A DNA stretch of 64,000 nt from the NCBI GenBank assembly GCA_963831225.1, contig CAWHPT010000013.1:12916-76915 (forward strand), written 5' to 3'. The position numbers and the translations under genes were made by a program. This DNA is from an uncultured Alphaproteobacteria bacterium (GTDB lineage Bacteria; Pseudomonadota; Alphaproteobacteria; Rhizobiales; Xanthobacteraceae). Within the stretch, counting starts at the first letter, position 1; every line of letters begins with the position of its first letter. Positions 27,883 through 54,720 of this stretch are shown piece by piece. The notes beneath the pieces are model-generated. The model was given only the letters and a program-made list of their open reading frames with translations. It was not told the DNA's origin and searched no databases.

Positions 27883-28175
27883 TTCTTCCGGAAACGACCC
27901 CGCCGACGCGTCACCGCAATGCGGAGCGATTCTCGATCCAACGCGCACTCGAGCATTTTCCGGAAAAGTGGAGACCGGTTTTCCGCAGAAAATGCGACCA
28001 ACTAAAGAAGTTAGAGCGCGTTTCCGATTCAACCTAATCGAAACGCGCTCTAGCCTGTACTTCTGACTTCTTCTTGACCCTGCGTCGAGCCGAGGTCTGA
28101 TATCTATTGAGCCTTCGAGTTCCGGAGCCCCCCGAGGTTATGACGATCGGAGGCGCTGCCGGAGGAGCAAGAACC

Positions 28176-29185
28176 ATGTTCGACCGCATAGGCTGCTGCG
28201 TTCCCATTCAAGCGAAATGGCGTTGTGTCCTGGCCGCCGCGCCGGCGGCGCTCGCATTGCTGCTCGCTGCCGCTCCGTTGCTCGCCGCCTATCCGGAGCG
28301 GGTAATCACGCTGGTGGTGCCATTCGCAGCGGGTGGTCCGACCGACATCATTGCGCGCATCGTCTCGGTCGCGTTGTCGAAATCGCTCGGCCAGTCGGTC
28401 GTCGTCGAAAATCGTGGCGGTGGGGGTGGCAATCCGGGCATGGGCATGGTGGCCCGCGCCACGCCTGACGGCTACACGCTGCTGCTCACATCGACCGCCA
28501 TCGCCGTAAATCCGGCGCTCTACAAAAATCTGCCCTACGACCCATTCAAGGATTTCGCTCCGATCTGCGAATTGGTCAATGCACCGAACGTGATCTTCGT
28601 GCGCTCGGATTCCAGCATCAAGTCGCTCGCCGACCTGATCGCAGCGCGCAAAGTCCGCGCCGGGATCGCTCAACTATTCGAGCCCGGGCGTCGGCACCAA
28701 GTCGCATCTCACCGGCGAGCAGCTCAAGCTGCGGGCCGGCGTCGACATGGTTCATATTCCTTACCGCGGCGGCGGTCCCGCCACCATGGCGGTGCTGGAT
28801 GGTACGGTGCATGTCGGTTCGGTGGCGCTCGCGCCGGTCGAGCCGCTGGTCAAGGAAGGCAAGTTCAGGGCGCTCGCGGTCACCGGGCCGGAGCGCTGGT
28901 TCTCACTGCCCGACGTTCCCACCATGATCGAATCCGGTTTTCCAGGTTTCGTTTCTGACACGTTCAACGCGCTGTTCGCGCCAGCCGGAACGCCGCCGGC
29001 CATCGTGGCGCTGCTGTCCAGAGAGAGCCAGGCCGCGCTCGAGACGCCGGAGGCCCGCGACCAGGCGCGCCGCGCCGGCTATCAGATCGTCGCCGGAACG
29101 CCAGAGCAGCTGGCGGCACGAGCTCGCTTCGGAAATTCCCGCCGTCAAGGAGCTGGTGGGCAGACTTGGTATCAAGCCGGAATAG
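28176..29185 (+). pseudogene. Bug-family (TctC-like) substrate-binding protein, about 2 frameshifts
   Basis: ATG 28176 follows GGAGGAG. YPERVITLVVPFAAGGPTDIIAR and VENRGGGGG are in ORF 28107; HIPYRGGGPATMAVL is in ORF 28747. The tail ends at TAG 29183-29185. Confidence 0.85.
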
Positions 29186-29266
29186 TGGCCGGAGAGCAAC
29201 TTGTCGCGGCTCGCGCGGTCGATGCTTCTGCTATAGTTCGTCATTCCATTGCATGGAGACAAAAGG

Positions 29267-30245
29267 ATGAATCGCTCAGCACTGGCGTTGCGCGCGCTGA
29301 TCTGCTCGGCAATGCTCGCGGCGGCAACTCTTGCTTCCCAGGCGCAGACCTATCCGGGCAAGCCGATCCGGCTCATTCTGCCCGTACGTCCCCGGCGGCA
29401 TCATCGACACCACCGGCCGCAATCTGGCGGTGCGGCTCGGCGAGGCGATGGGAGTGTCGGTGGTGGCGGAGAATCGTCCAGGCGCCGGCGGCACCGTGGG
29501 CGTCGATGTGGCTCGCACGCTCGACGCCGGACGGCTACACGATCGTGTTGACCGATCCCGGCGTCGTGTCCAATCCGACGCTGCTGAAGGACGTGCCTTA
29601 CGATCTGTTCAAGGGCCTGCAGGCGGTCTCCATCATCGGCTCCTCGCCGGCGGTGATCGTTTCGTCGCTGCATTTGCCGGTGAAGACGTTTGCCGAGCTC
29701 ATCGCCTATGCCAAGGCCAATCCCGGCAAGCTCAATTTCGCGTCCGCCGGGATCGGGACGGCGCCGCATCTGGCCGGCGAGATGATCAAGCTGCAAACCG
29801 GCATCGACATGACTCACGTGCCATATCGCGGCATCGGCGCCGCCTATCCCGACGTGCTGAGCGGCAAGGTGCAGCTGGCGTTCTCCAGCATCGCGGGAGC
29901 GGTGCCGTTCACCAGCGACAATCGCGTGCGCCGCTCGCCACCACCAGGGCGGTGCGCAGCCCGGTCTATCCCAACGTGCCGACGGTCGCGGAGTCCGGCC
30001 TTCCCGGCTTCGACGTCGACCTCTGGCTCGGCATCTTCGCGCCCGCCGGCATGCCTCCCGCAGTGCTTGCGAAGCTCAACGGCGAGATCAACAAGGTGCT
30101 GCAGCATCCCGAGATGAAGGCGGCCATGGCCAAGATCGGCGTCGAGCCGCGCGGGACCAGCCCGGAGGAGGCTGCCGCCATCACGCGCTCCGAATACGAG
30201 AAATGGAAAAAGGTCATCGTCGAAGGCAAGATCAAGCCGGAGTAG
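29267..30245 (+). pseudogene. Bug-family (TctC-like) substrate-binding protein, about 3 frameshifts
   Basis: Signal peptide MNRSALALRALICSAMLAAATLASQA (ATG 29267). YPGKPIRLILP, VPGGIIDTTGR, ENRPGAGG and HVPYRGIGAAYPDVL lie across ORFs 29249, 29331, 28747 and 29331. Confidence 0.85.
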
Positions 30246-30756
30246 GCGATTGGCGTGCCCAACCTGAAATTATCTGCGAATTGGATCGGTTGGCGGAACA
30301 AGCATCACGTCTCACGCATTGTCGAGGGCACTACCTTGATCGGCGCATACAGCGTGGCGGACGGGATCGTTCCGAACGCTGCTGACTGTACCGCTCGTGC
30401 TCACGCTGCTGACAGGTTGCTTCCAGCATGTGAGCCTCGCGCCTCGACCGCCCCAAACCGGTCGGCGTGATCGAATGGTAAGTGGACACAGCTCATTGCT
30501 CGAACCGATCCGCAAGAGTTCGATCGTTCCCGAGTCGTCATTTTGGGCGACGTCGACCATTTCGGTAAGCCGGTCATTCGCCATGCCTATGAGCAATGCG
30601 GTGATCTGAAACCGATGATTCGCGATGGCCGCTTTACGTAATCCAAGTCGAGGATCACAAAAGTTCAATCTACGTCGTCGAGTGCAACTGAGTTCGGTGG
30701 CTATGCGCGCATGGCGGGCAGCGCGCGTCTCATTGGGTGGAAAAGTAGCCAATAAA

Positions 30757-30786
30757 GAAGGGCCGCCCTCGCGAGGGCGGCCCTTC
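30757..30786 (-). terminator. Intrinsic terminator for a minus-strand transcript
   Basis: GAAGGGCCGCCCT-CGCG-AGGGCGGCCCTTC forms a perfect 13-bp GC-rich stem with a 4-nt loop. On the minus strand it is followed by TTTATT (30756-30751). There is no U-tract on the plus strand. Confidence 0.7.
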
Positions 30787-30824
30787 CATTGTCGAGCCGT
30801 GGTCCGGCAAAAGCCGTGCAACGC

Positions 30825-30902
30825 CTAGGCGGCGTGGACCCCCACAGAGGCTAGGATCCAGTTCACGGATGCCGGCGACCGCGGCGATAGACAATGAGAC
30901 AC
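30825..30902 (-). CDS. Candidate 25-codon micro-ORF (MSHCLSPRSPASVNWILASVGVHAA) behind an extreme Shine-Dalgarno
   Basis: The GTG start (30902-30900) overlaps the end of the minus-strand GAAAGGAGGTGATCCAG (30918-30902). The stop TAG is at 30827-30825. A promoter-like motif lies upstream and a terminator downstream. No homology was recognised. Confidence 0.3.
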   Translation of the reverse strand: MSHCLSPRSPASVNWILASVGVHAA

Positions 30903-30946
30903 TGGATCACCTCCTTTCGATGACGAGACCTAGCTTTGGCAGCCCT

Positions 30947-30975
30947 AGATAGGCCCGTGATTGCGATGTTTTCAA
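30947..30975 (-). promoter_or_regulatory. Sigma70-like promoter candidate for the micro-ORF unit
   Basis: The minus strand reads TTGAAA (30975-30970), N17, CTATCT (30952-30947), close to the alphaproteobacterial CTTGAC-N17-CTATAT consensus. Confidence 0.35.
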
Positions 30976-31231: not shown

Positions 31232-31318
31232 TTAGAACCAGCGCCCCCTGCCATACCAGCCACCGCCGAGCAGAAGCACAAGCAAGATGACGATGATTAG
31301 GAGAGTGGTGTTGTCCAT
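31232..31318 (-). CDS. 28-aa hydrophobic membrane micropeptide MDNTTLLIIVILLVLLLGGGWYGRGRWF
   Basis: ATG 31318 lies 6 nt after AGGAGG, inside ORF 31232..31462. The peptide has one TM helix followed by a Gly/aromatic/Arg tail. It recalls small DUF3309-like peptides of Rhizobiales (from memory, not searched). Confidence 0.5.
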   Translation of the reverse strand: MDNTTLLIIVILLVLLLGGGWYGRGRWF

Positions 31319-52029: not shown

Positions 52030-53418
52030 TCAAGCTGGGCCGATCATTCGTTCCGGCCGCACCAAGCGGTCGAACTCCGCCGGCGAAACGTAGCCGAGGC
52101 TGATTGCCTCTTCGCGCAAGGTCGTGCCGCTGGCGTGCGCGCGCTTAGCGATCTCGGCCGCCCGATCATAGCCGATCTTTGGTGCGAGGGCGGTGACCAG
52201 CATGAGAGAATCTCGCAGCAGCTCGCCGATGCGGGTCTCGTTGGCGCGGATGCCGGAGACGCAGTTGTCGGCGAACGAGGCCGCGGCATCGGCCAGCAGT
52301 CGGATGGATTGGAGCATGGCATAGGCGATCACAGGCTTGTAAACGTTGAGCTCGAAATGCCCCTGGCTTGCTGCGACCGTGATCGTGGTGTGGTTGCCGA
52401 ACACCTGGCAGCAAACCATCGTCAAGGCTTCCGCCTGGGTCGGGTTCACCTTGCCGGGCATGATGGAGGAACCCGGCTCGTTCTCCGGCAGCAGGAGCTC
52501 ACCGAGGCCCGAGCGCGGCCCCGAGCCGAGCAGCCGGATATCATTTGCGATCTTGAACAAGCCGGTGGCGACCGAGCTGAGTGCTCCATGCGCGAATACG
52601 ATCGCATCATGAGCCGCCAATGCCTCGAACTTGTTCTCGGCGGTGACGAAGGGCAGGTGGGTCAGGCCGGCGATCTTCGCGGCAACGAGCTTGGCGAATT
52701 GCGGCTTGGCATTGAGCCCGGTGCCGACCGCGGTGCCGCCCTGCGCCAGCGGATAAAGTTCCTCCAGCGCGGCATTGAGTCGTGTTCGCCCCAGCTTCAC
52801 CTGCGCCGCGTATCCCGAAAATTCCTGTCCGAGAGTGAGCGGCGTCGCGTCCTGTCCGTGAGTGCGCCCGATCTTGATGATGCCAGCGAATTCATTCGAC
52901 TTCTGCTCGAGGGCTGCCTGCAGGCTGGCCAGCGCCGGCATCAACCGGTGAACAATTTCCTCCACCGCCGCGATATGCATCGCGGTCGGAAAACAGTCGT
53001 TCGAGGACTGGCTCATGTTGACGTGATCATTCGGATGCACCGGCGATCTTGCTCCGCGCTCGGCGCCGAGCATCTCGTTCGCGCGCGCTGCGATCACCTC
53101 GTTGACGTTCATGTTGGTCTGAGTGCCGGATCCGGTCTGCCACACCATAAGCGGAAAGTTTTCGTCGAGCTTGCCCTCGATCACCTCCTGTGCTGCGGGC
53201 GCGATCGCGTCGGCGCGTCGGGCGTCGAGCGATCCGAGCTCGTGGTTGACCTCGGCGGCCGCCCGCTTGATGACGCCGAGCGCACGGATGATCGGCTTCG
53301 GCATGCGCTCCTCGCCGATGCGGAAATTGCGGCGCGAACGCTCGGTCTGAGCACCCCAGTGGCGGTCGGCCGCCACCTCGATCGGGCCGAACGTGTCGCT
53401 CTCCGTGCGGGTCTTCAT
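52030..53418 (-). CDS. fumC: Class II fumarate hydratase FumC (intact, 462 aa)
   Basis: ATG 53418 in ORF 52030..53817: [43 protein letters not shown] (fumarate lyase signature). Confidence 0.95.
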
Positions 53419-54174: not shown

Positions 54175-54548
54175 TGTAAGTGGAGGCTTCTGTTGCCAGG
54201 TGCCTCCGAACCCCGCCTGCCGGAGCTTAACCCGTCAGGGCTTCAAGTCGGTATTCCAAACCGCGTTACGCGGCCTGGGCAACCGGAGCATAGTTGTCGT
54301 TGGCAACTATGGATTTGGCCCGATAACGGTGGAACCATGCCGAGCGAAAGCATGCCCTTTACGCCCTCGTCGATCCTGTTTCGCCCCCGTGTCCGGGATC
54401 AGAGATCAGTGGTCGGTGACCAGAAACATCCGATGACCGACTTCTGACCGCTGACCCCCTTATGGTGGAGGCGCCGGGTACTGCCCCCGGGTCCGAAAGG
54501 TTTATTACGACAGCCATTTATCGCCATAGCCGGCTTGCGCCGGCACCC
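54175..54548 (-). ncRNA. ssrA: Two-piece (circularly permuted) tmRNA gene, tag ANDNYAPVAQAA; ends approximate
   Basis: The minus strand shows: -10 CTATAT (54558-54553); an acceptor piece ending with a T-arm CCGGG-GGCAGTA-CCCGG plus CGCCTCC-A-CCA (CCA ends at 54463); a 74-nt spacer; a coding piece starting GGGGGCG at 54388, which pairs with CGCCTCC and gives G3:U. The tag ORF is GCC AAC GAC AAC TAT GCT CCG GTT GCC CAG GCC GCG TAA (54304-54266). Confidence 0.85.
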
Positions 54549-54720
54549 CTCGATATAGGCACGCAATGGTGTCGAAAAAAGAGCCGAATGCGGGATAACT
54601 GGCTGGAGCCCGCGGGTCCGGGTCAATTCTTATTCGGCCAAGCCTTATCCGGCCCAAATCATAGGGAGCCTTTCCGACAAATCGATGGTTCACTGATGGG
54701 ACCAGTCCTAATCTTCCGCC

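Follow-up and report, generated by a model that had tools for sequence, protein, structure and literature searches.

A minigene of the alphaproteobacterial rre/CC2171 superfamily with a leader complementary to the 3' tail of 16S rRNA

A study of Bradyrhizobium japonicum has described rreB, a 165-nt mRNA in which a 17-nt "17c-region", perfectly complementary to the 3' end of 16S ribosomal RNA (rRNA), takes in the first nucleotide of the GTG that starts a 14-amino-acid short open reading frame (sORF) (Hahn et al., RNA Biol 14:1353, 2017, PMC5711450). Here we describe a locus of this already known kind on the minus strand of a 64,000-nucleotide stretch of DNA from an uncultured alphaproteobacterium of the Xanthobacteraceae (GenBank assembly GCA_963831225.1, contig CAWHPT010000013.1, positions 12,916 to 76,915 of the forward strand; the whole stretch is called the window). 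A first-pass annotation of the sequence had singled out positions 30757-30975 of the window as a self-contained minigene with a leader complementary to the 16S rRNA tail. The kind comprises the rre genes and the Rfam family CC2171, and the window adds one more member.

The biochemistry of the rre genes comes from rreB (PMC5711450). Full-length rreB RNA was found in the P100 fraction (ribosome and membrane pellet) and cosedimented with 30S subunits. Fusions to egfp were translated weakly, and translation was impeded both by the extended Shine-Dalgarno (SD) sequence and by the GTG start codon; when the start codon was replaced by a stop codon, the RNA was stabilized. Neither overexpression of rreB nor a construct expected to overproduce the RreB peptide gave a growth phenotype, and ribosomes were judged to be far more abundant than rreB RNA. 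BLAST searches with the 16S tail revealed analogous genes in Caulobacterales, Rhizobiales, Rhodobacterales (rreR, 18 amino acids), and Rhodospirillales, whose small proteins were termed conserved within clades, and synthetic RreB and RreR were unstructured. The authors speculated that trapping of a ribosome results in cleavage of rreB and in rescue; the function of rreB, in their words, "remains elusive."

The small RNA (sRNA) CC2171 was first discovered in Caulobacter crescentus and has been confirmed by Northern blotting in Methylorubrum extorquens, with no condition known to affect it (bioRxiv 10.1101/2022.01.24.477521). Neither CC2171 nor Rfam is mentioned by Hahn et al. (PMC5711450), and the equivalence of CC2171 and rre is stated neither there nor in the M. 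extorquens preprint. In a literature search, no functional study of rre genes was found, and the only citations of Hahn et al. found were the authors' own later papers.

Complementarity to the 16S rRNA tail and family identity

Direct reading of the window gave CTGGATCACCTCCTTTC on the plus strand at 30902-30918. The minus-strand sequence, GAAAGGAGGTGATCCAG, contains the canonical SD motif AGGAGG and is identical to the 17c-region of rreB-type Bradyrhizobium loci. Since the 17c-region of rreB complements the B. japonicum 16S 3' end without a mismatch (PMC5711450), this identity implies that the window 17-mer is complementary to the 16S tail of its own host, whose 16S gene lies outside the window; no 16S 3' end was present in the fetched loci, where one was sought for direct comparison. 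The reading of the plus strand as the 3'-terminal sequence of 16S rRNA in the first-pass annotation was thus borne out. TG follows directly 3' of GAAAGGAGGTGATCCAG on the minus strand, giving a GTG codon at 30902-30900, and, as annotated, the last G of the 17-mer opens an open reading frame (ORF) of 25 codons (30902..30825). Perfect complementarity to the 16S 3' end therefore spans 17 nt across AGGAGG, within the 16 to 17 nt of the rre small mRNAs, and the last complementary nucleotide is the first base of a GTG that opens a very short sORF. The element is among the most extreme natural SD interactions, pairing with the entire free 3' tail of 16S rRNA.

A chance match, or a remnant of 16S rRNA or of the internal transcribed spacer (ITS), would have nothing in its favor beyond the 17-nt identity itself. 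The 17-mer occurs exactly once in the 64-kb window, AAGGAGGT is likewise unique there, and in shuffled sequence only 0.10 matches would be expected even with up to 3 mismatches. The sole other match in the window (3 mismatches, 53176-53192) sits within a fumarase-like coding sequence and was rejected as a coincidence. No small-subunit rRNA match was found anywhere in the window at the gathering threshold, and similarity to 16S or ITS did not extend beyond the 17-mer. The flank reads GACAATGAGACA immediately before CTGG, whereas alphaproteobacterial 16S rRNA is expected to read CCTGCGG at that place. Homologous loci numbered more than 200, and in each of them TG and an sORF directly adjoin the 17-mer, whose flank is conserved as part of the sORF. 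An origin by chance or from rRNA is thus refuted, with only a negligible probability left to it. The earlier view that this is no rRNA remnant therefore held, and the case it had named as fatal, a 17-mer lying within a longer rRNA- or ITS-derived fragment, did not apply.

The unit matched Rfam family RF01867 (CC2171 sRNA) over the full model and above the gathering score of 75 bits. The model starts 8 nt upstream of the 17-mer and its consensus reads AucGAAAGGAGGUGAUCCAGUGUCUCAUuGuC, which holds AucGAAAGGAGGUGAUCCAGUGUCUCAU, the 17-mer and GUGUCUCAU; a curated RNA family thus has the 17-mer as its conserved core. Units of the window's type scored between 81 and 120 bits, above the gathering score. 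Full-length but subthreshold matches were obtained for the rreB type (47 and 42 bits), the rreR type (37, 32.5, and 30 bits), and a variant from Gemmatimonadales (28 bits, locus L006 of our set). Since the matches run over the full length in every type, CC2171, rreB, and rreR belong together, and, as judged from these alignments, a single superfamily takes in both the "noncoding" sRNA CC2171 and the "small mRNA" rre genes.

Conservation of the unit, its fold, and its reading frame

Scanning one genome per species with the pattern AGGAGGTGATCCAGTGTC returned at least 120 loci, nearly all of them in Alphaproteobacteria. Among the loci listed, to which all counts of genome loci below refer, three types were recognized: a Bradyrhizobium-like rreB type (14 loci, next to a tRNA as published; 14 amino acids, MSxxKRCHLAGIAR), an rreR type in Rhodobacterales (35 loci; 18 amino acids, MSRxxLERGVGT......), and the window's type (64 loci; 21 to 26 amino acids, MSHC...W-I-L-A-S...), which was found in Rhizobiales, Caulobacterales, Acetobacteraceae, and others. 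The scan pattern includes part of the 17-mer, and conservation was thus judged by the bases outside the pattern and by a retrieval that made no use of the SD sequence. The three bases outside the pattern that complete the complementarity were conserved (G in 102, A in 105, and A in 112 of 116 listed loci), and the next base upstream was variable (C 48, T 38, G 15, A 15). The SD-independent retrieval, from metagenomes with GTGTCTCATTGTC-N70-100-GACAATGGAAGG, gave 115 distinct units, 100 of which were perfect over the 16 nt upstream of GTG, that is, had a perfect 17-mer, with 10 more showing one mismatch. Again, conservation collapsed at the base 5' of the 17-mer. BLAST similarity between the window and its relatives ran from 30755 to 30919, with the terminator at one end and the 17-mer's 5' edge at the other. 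Together, the edge of the BLAST block and the base-wise collapse indicate that the unit ceases to be conserved where complementarity to the 16S tail runs out. The first-pass annotation had asked which part of the unit relatives would share, and had named absence or lack of conservation in related genomes as a result that would tell against it; homologues turned up at more than 200 loci, and the 17-mer, the frame, and the fold appear to be under stronger selection than the chemistry of the peptide.

An alphaproteobacterial host is supported by the closest relatives among those listed, which are alphaproteobacterial and include Pseudolabrys and Xanthobacteraceae metagenome-assembled genomes (MAGs), and by an alphaproteobacterial two-piece (permuted) transfer-messenger RNA gene in the window (54179-54584, minus strand, 297 bits). 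A distance of 23 kb separates the latter from the unit, and no link between the two was evident.

Two observations were made outside the Alphaproteobacteria. Three Gemmatimonadales MAGs (L006, L017, and L094) carry an rre-like unit with CCGAGGAGGTGATCCAG, a GTG, and a terminator of its own; the sORF encodes 14 amino acids (MSxDxxKARIAGSx), and the 5' extension is CCG as opposed to GAA. In the chromosome of Streptomyces sp. NBC_00019 (L061), GAAAGGAGGTGATCCAG-TG precedes a 51-amino-acid ORF rich in Cys, Ser, and Thr, MSISIELLQELPSTEEASLAAADCCWSSILDGCQFFSLTISSCHSCTNTGS, which is unrelated to the architecture of the rre RNAs and gave us the impression of a lanthipeptide-type precursor.

When folded from its predicted start (196 nt), the RNA of the window unit had a free energy of -93.7 kcal/mol and a z-score of -3.85, and in this minimum free energy (MFE) fold the core of the 17-mer was largely unpaired. 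A helix termed P1, whose 5' strand covers codons 3 to 5, closes a multibranch domain with the terminator directly after it. A consensus fold of 55 sequences kept P1, a further helix (P2), and the terminator. P1 was formed by canonical pairs in 50 to 53 of the 55 sequences with a few compensatory changes, and the terminator helix showed many compensatory pairs across relatives. The window unit thus resembles the RF01867 model in its P1 closing helix, variable middle, and terminator, the difference being that both Rfam and the M. extorquens preprint treat CC2171 as a noncoding sRNA. If that label were taken at its word, the RNA would act in trans by base pairing, with the 17-mer or the internal loops targeting other RNAs and the ORF being incidental. 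The Rfam listing, the strong conserved structure with its covariation, and the predicted stand-alone transcript with a terminator are all in keeping with such a role. However, the conserved single-stranded element is an exact match to the 16S tail and its conservation stops where the tail ends, rreB is physically on 30S subunits, and a conserved frame and start codon would be needless in a pure riboregulator. We therefore regard a trans-acting sRNA as quite improbable.

The predicted accessibility of the SD sequence differed among the types. The median pairing probability of AGGAGG was 0.99 in the rreR type, 0.73 in the rreB type, for which pairing of the SD sequence was also predicted by Hahn et al. 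(PMC5711450), and 0.54 in the window's type. The predicted partner of AGGAGG in the rreR type is CCaCCUCCU, an internal 16S-tail copy that lies beside the terminator. The 5' GAAAG was predicted to be freer than AGGAGG in all three types, which fits the published "seed" idea (Hahn et al.). A Caulobacteraceae-type unit (L066) and its near-identical counterpart (L048) contain an inserted GGGAUCACCUCC in the middle domain, a perfect 11-nt copy of the 16S tail that is predicted to pair with the SD region at a probability of about 0.8. The window unit also has an internal partial copy of the tail, CUGGAUCC, in which the conserved Trp codon stands in frame. GAUCCAG in the 17c-region is a possible pairing partner for this segment, which in the MFE fold pairs locally instead.

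The reading frame of the sORF is preserved in the relatives. In 98 of 103 metagenome units, CTGG (in which TGG is a Trp codon) occurred at offsets of 26, 29, 32, 35, 38, or 41 from GTG, and CTGG was in frame in 56 of 61 units of the genome set. Because the offsets fall in steps of three, insertions and deletions must have come in multiples of 3, leaving the frame intact. In one MAG (L004), two single extra bases in two homopolymer runs, relative to a close relative, shift the frame; these are likely sequencing errors, and they call for caution in frame-based statistics. Among relatives, stops alternate between TAG, TAA, and TGA. In the rreR and rreB classes the position of the stop was fixed, with TAG/TAA/TGA counts of 16/8/6 and 5/5/4, respectively, and it was never TGG or another sense codon.

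Nevertheless, a 3-nt periodicity of variability was sought in the sORFs of all three types and none was found: values at codon positions 1, 2, and 3 were 0.77, 0.69, and 0.68 for the rreR type, 0.25, 0.24, and 0.15 for the rreB type, and 1.38, 1.53, and 1.49 for the window's type, with no synonymous-site signature. Equal variability at the three positions argues against selection of the usual protein-coding kind; either the peptide may not matter, or constraints on the RNA may mask those on coding. The conserved residues coincide with RNA elements, His-Cys with the P1 strand CAUUGUC and Trp-Ile with CUGGAUC. Exact look-ups of family peptides in a collection of 15 billion proteins found none, and the lack of an annotated peptide homologue is to be expected since the ORFs encode fewer than 30 amino acids. 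Selection appears to act on the 17-mer and the start codon, on an open, translated frame of set length, and on the RNA's sequence and fold, and less on the chemistry of the peptide.

These data bear directly on whether the 25-amino-acid peptide is the effector and the RNA a plain mRNA for a micropeptide that is made efficiently under some condition. The frame kept through 3-nt insertions and deletions, the recurrent motif MSHC...(T/S)W-I-L-A-S-x-E-V, the fixed and alternating stops of the rreR and rreB classes, and the clade-wise conservation of the small proteins reported by Hahn et al. (PMC5711450) would agree with an effector peptide. Yet the variability is equal across codon positions, the conserved residues overlap CUGGAUC and the P1 strand, and the three classes, whose RNAs match one model, have unrelated peptides. 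Moreover, synthetic RreB and RreR were unstructured, and the construct from which RreB overproduction was expected had no effect on growth (PMC5711450). An effector peptide is, on balance, unlikely.

The transcription unit and its probable engagement of the 30S subunit

The features of the unit are collected in Table 1.

Table 1. Minus-strand features of the unit, in window positions
Feature	Positions	Strand	Remarks
Putative -35 box TTGAAA	30970..30975	minus	Read from sequence; 17 nt upstream of CTATCT; inferred feature
Putative -10 box CTATCT	30947..30952	minus	Read from sequence; 34 nt upstream of 17-mer
Predicted 5' leader	30919..30940	minus	Start near 30940 inferred by distance from -10 box
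RF01867 (CC2171 sRNA) full-length match	30759..30926	minus	85.3 bits, E = 4e-16, model 1-159 of 159
17c-region GAAAGGAGGTGATCCAG	30902..30918	minus	Contains canonical SD AGGAGG; final G is base 1 of start codon
sORF	30825..30902	minus	GTG start, 25 codons (MSHCLSPRSPASVNWILASVGVHAA), TAG stop 30827-30825
P1 helix, 5' strand CAUUGUC (codons 3-5)	30890..30896	minus	In MFE fold, Rfam consensus structure, 55-sequence fold
Internal CUGGAUCC	30854..30861	minus	Copies part of 16S tail; holds conserved in-frame Trp codon
P1 helix, 3' strand GACAAUG	30787..30793	minus	In MFE fold, Rfam consensus structure, 55-sequence fold
Terminator hairpin GAAGGGCCGCCCU-CGCG-AGGGCGGCCCUUC	30757..30786	minus	13 perfect bp, CGCG loop
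T-tract TTTATT	30751..30756	minus	Directly after terminator stem

The first-pass annotation had proposed a promoter at the TTGAAA/CTATCT pair. The boxes and their 17-nt spacer are present, and a CTAnnT/TAnnnT box was found in 120 of 172 relatives, 24 to 28 nt upstream of the 17-mer with a sharp peak at 25 to 26 nt; on the other side, a scan for Escherichia coli-type promoters did not call the pair. The closest relative of the window unit reads CTACCT where the window has CTATCT, and rreB-type loci have CCTATAT at the corresponding position, at which the promoter and transcription start site of rreB have been mapped (Hahn et al., PMC5711450). The annotated promoter is plausible; its leader would exceed the usual length by about 8 nt, and a transcript of about 190 nt from a sigma-70-type promoter is predicted. 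Relatives carry a CA-rich leader, CAAC(A/C)A, in the same place. The annotated 13-bp hairpin and TTTATT tract were confirmed (30786-30757 and 30756-30751, respectively); the terminator is both strongly predicted from this stem and T-tract and conserved, whereas the promoter is consensus-like. The claim of a self-contained minus-strand unit is supported by the family-wide conserved block at 30755-30919, by the Rfam match, and by the published work on rreB.

Taken together, we consider it probable, at roughly 0.8, that the locus is an alphaproteobacterial rre/CC2171 small stand-alone mRNA that would behave like rreB, engaging the 30S subunit and being weakly translated. Membership, conservation pattern, and fold come from the present comparison; 30S binding, weak translation, and start-codon-dependent stability were shown for rreB and would be transferred to the window unit by kinship. 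Like rreB and rreR, the window unit has the identical 17-nt region with its final G starting a GTG codon, a very short sORF, and an alphaproteobacterial host, and it is predicted to form a stand-alone unit in the range of 165 to 190 nt with its own promoter and intrinsic terminator. It differs in that its sORF has 25 codons (MSHC...WILAS...) as opposed to 14 in rreB and 18 in rreR, the peptides being unrelated, in that its SD sequence is predicted to be less sequestered, and in that it passes the RF01867 threshold, whereas rreB and rreR fall below it. Furthermore, rreB lies beside a tRNA-Gly gene, and the window unit lies between TctC-family genes.

In such a unit, the single-stranded 5' leader and a GAAAG "toehold" would recruit the 30S subunit, after which the whole free 16S 3' tail could pair with the 17c-region over as many as 17 bp, the first base of GUG lying inside the duplex. 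Three brakes would separate 30S binding from elongation: the overlong SD:anti-SD duplex, the weak GUG, and the P1 helix beginning at codon 3. The first two were shown for rreB by Hahn et al., and the third is our proposal. The RNA would thus reside on 30S subunits with its 25-codon sORF weakly translated, and its turnover would be governed by translation, with decay depending on the start codon. In the case of rreB, the dependence of decay on the start codon means that decay depends on events at the ribosome.

Several points weigh against this reading. The promoter is consensus-like and its -10 box in the window is displaced upstream by 8 nt relative to the family mode. The SD sequence is predicted to be less sequestered in the window's type than in rreB and rreR units, so that kinetics may differ. 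The sORFs of the three types show no 3-nt periodicity of variability. All of the biochemistry comes from rreB, whose RF01867 match is below threshold, and neither overexpression of rreB nor the construct from which more peptide was expected altered growth (PMC5711450).

The last of these points also bears on the roles that had been suggested for the unit at first sight. A ribosome sponge would lower translation capacity by titrating 30S subunits, and a pairing of up to 17 bp and the cosedimentation of rreB with 30S subunits are what it would call for. However, an overproduced ribosome-binding RNA had no effect on growth, and ribosomes are far more abundant than the RNA (PMC5711450); bulk titration is very improbable, and the suggested 30S-sequestering role is correspondingly disfavored. 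A hyperinitiated micropeptide, the second suggestion, is contradicted by the weak translation of rreB. The third, a stalled-initiation regulatory element, would fit best, given that rreB is found on 30S subunits and that its weak translation is impeded by the extended SD sequence and by GTG.

Other known systems share parts of this design. The STAB-SD of cryIIIA is a 5'-proximal strong SD sequence that acts as a stabilizer. In Bacillus subtilis hbs, too, a 5'-proximal strong SD sequence holds the ribosome or 30S subunit and couples RNA stability to occupancy (PMC5737220). These 5'-proximal stabilizers shield a long downstream mRNA from RNase J1 in Firmicutes, whereas the window transcript would consist wholly of the minigene; in addition, abolishing the start codon of rreB stabilized its RNA and did not destabilize it. 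The rnTrpL/peTrpL system of Sinorhizobium meliloti resembles the window unit in being a small alphaproteobacterial transcript with a very short ORF, a conserved RNA structure, and a terminator (PMC6614838, PMC7298713). It is a ribosome-dependent attenuator leader that also acts in trans, an indication that RNA and peptide can both matter. Unlike it, the window unit has no regulatory codon run and no downstream operon, and an extreme SD sequence is not known to be a feature of such leaders.

Genomic context and the rreR-arfB arrangement

The window unit lies within a gene-poor stretch of about 2 kb, of lower GC content, between TctC-family genes, and relatives share this TctC neighborhood. ORFs of the gene-poor region had no Pfam matches. 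No recognizable gene was found on the minus strand 3' of the unit, where about 500 nt are without a Pfam match on either strand. This segment between the TctC gene and the terminator (30245-30750, about 500 nt, 55 to 59% GC), whose ORFs likewise lacked Pfam matches, is absent from four syntenic relatives (L214, L010, L208, and L178). On the plus strand at 28107-30245, two tandem TctC-family (tripartite tricarboxylate receptor) genes are apparently split across frames, with segments 1-103, 34-171, and 175-271 of the TctC profile falling in three different ORFs; these may be pseudogenes or assembly indel errors. Upstream of the unit, at 31232-31318 on the minus strand, a 28-amino-acid hydrophobic sORF, MDNTTLLIIVILLVLLLGGGWYGRGRWF, has a well-spaced AGGAGG ahead of it and no Pfam match. 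For the window's class as a whole, no conserved synteny covering more than 11 of the 64 loci was found; a YaiI/YqxD gene followed the unit in 9 of the 64.

The arrangement was different in Rhodobacterales. The gene arfB encodes an alternative ribosome-rescue peptidyl-tRNA hydrolase. In 27 of the 35 listed loci (e.g., L029, L096, L019, and L007), rreR is flanked by a queuosine-precursor transporter gene (yhhQ-like) on one side and on the other by arfB, which is on the same strand with its ATG usually only tens of nucleotides after the rreR terminator. The identity of ArfB was confirmed with NCBIfam (181 bits against a cutoff of 100). In tblastn searches, arfB was detected only in Rhodobacterales loci and was absent from the window and from all listed loci of the window's type and the rreB type; it is not mentioned by Hahn et al. 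(PMC5711450). Many arfB genes have a -10-like box 6 to 8 nt before the ATG, which suggests, from our reading of these sequences, that arfB may have its own promoter and a leaderless mRNA. Separately, rreR-type loci (e.g., L001 and L029) carry a conserved ACACAAAATCTGTGGCA after a TTGACA box, about 25 to 45 nt upstream of the 17-mer, which may be a promoter or operator element specific to rreR of Rhodobacterales.

The position of arfB tens of nucleotides past the rreR terminator, on the same strand, raises the idea of a cis-acting leader or attenuator for the downstream gene. For the window unit this is extremely unlikely: it has no recognizable minus-strand gene within about 500 nt, arfB is missing from the window and from the listed loci of its type and of the rreB type, and synteny is not conserved in its class. 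Even in Rhodobacterales, the -10-like boxes before many arfB start codons suggest a leaderless promoter of their own. The folds gave no evident antiterminator alternative, and neither a downstream regulated gene nor an exclusive terminator/antiterminator pair, the features of a ribosome-dependent attenuator, was found for the window unit. An attenuator model for arfB was likewise rejected: the folds do pair the SD sequence with the internal 16S-tail copy by the terminator, but they offer no antiterminator.

A small mRNA that would engage the 30S subunit and be weakly translated, as we propose for the window unit, might nonetheless be connected with ribosome rescue in another way. The rre RNAs would then be ribosome-engaged regulatory RNAs, slow-clearing or stalling substrates that report or tune rescue or initiation capacity. 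We put this forward as a speculative and rather doubtful extension; if it were true, the window unit would be an orphan version of this device, acting in trans. The rreR-arfB synteny is possibly new and is a lead, not a finding.

The unit carries a full-tail SD sequence conserved across several alphaproteobacterial orders. To the family as a whole, this analysis adds the unity of CC2171 and rre, the conservation of the 17-mer that ends at the limit of complementarity, and a reading frame that is kept without a synonymous-site signature, and the rreR-arfB synteny gives the rre family a concrete genetic hypothesis.

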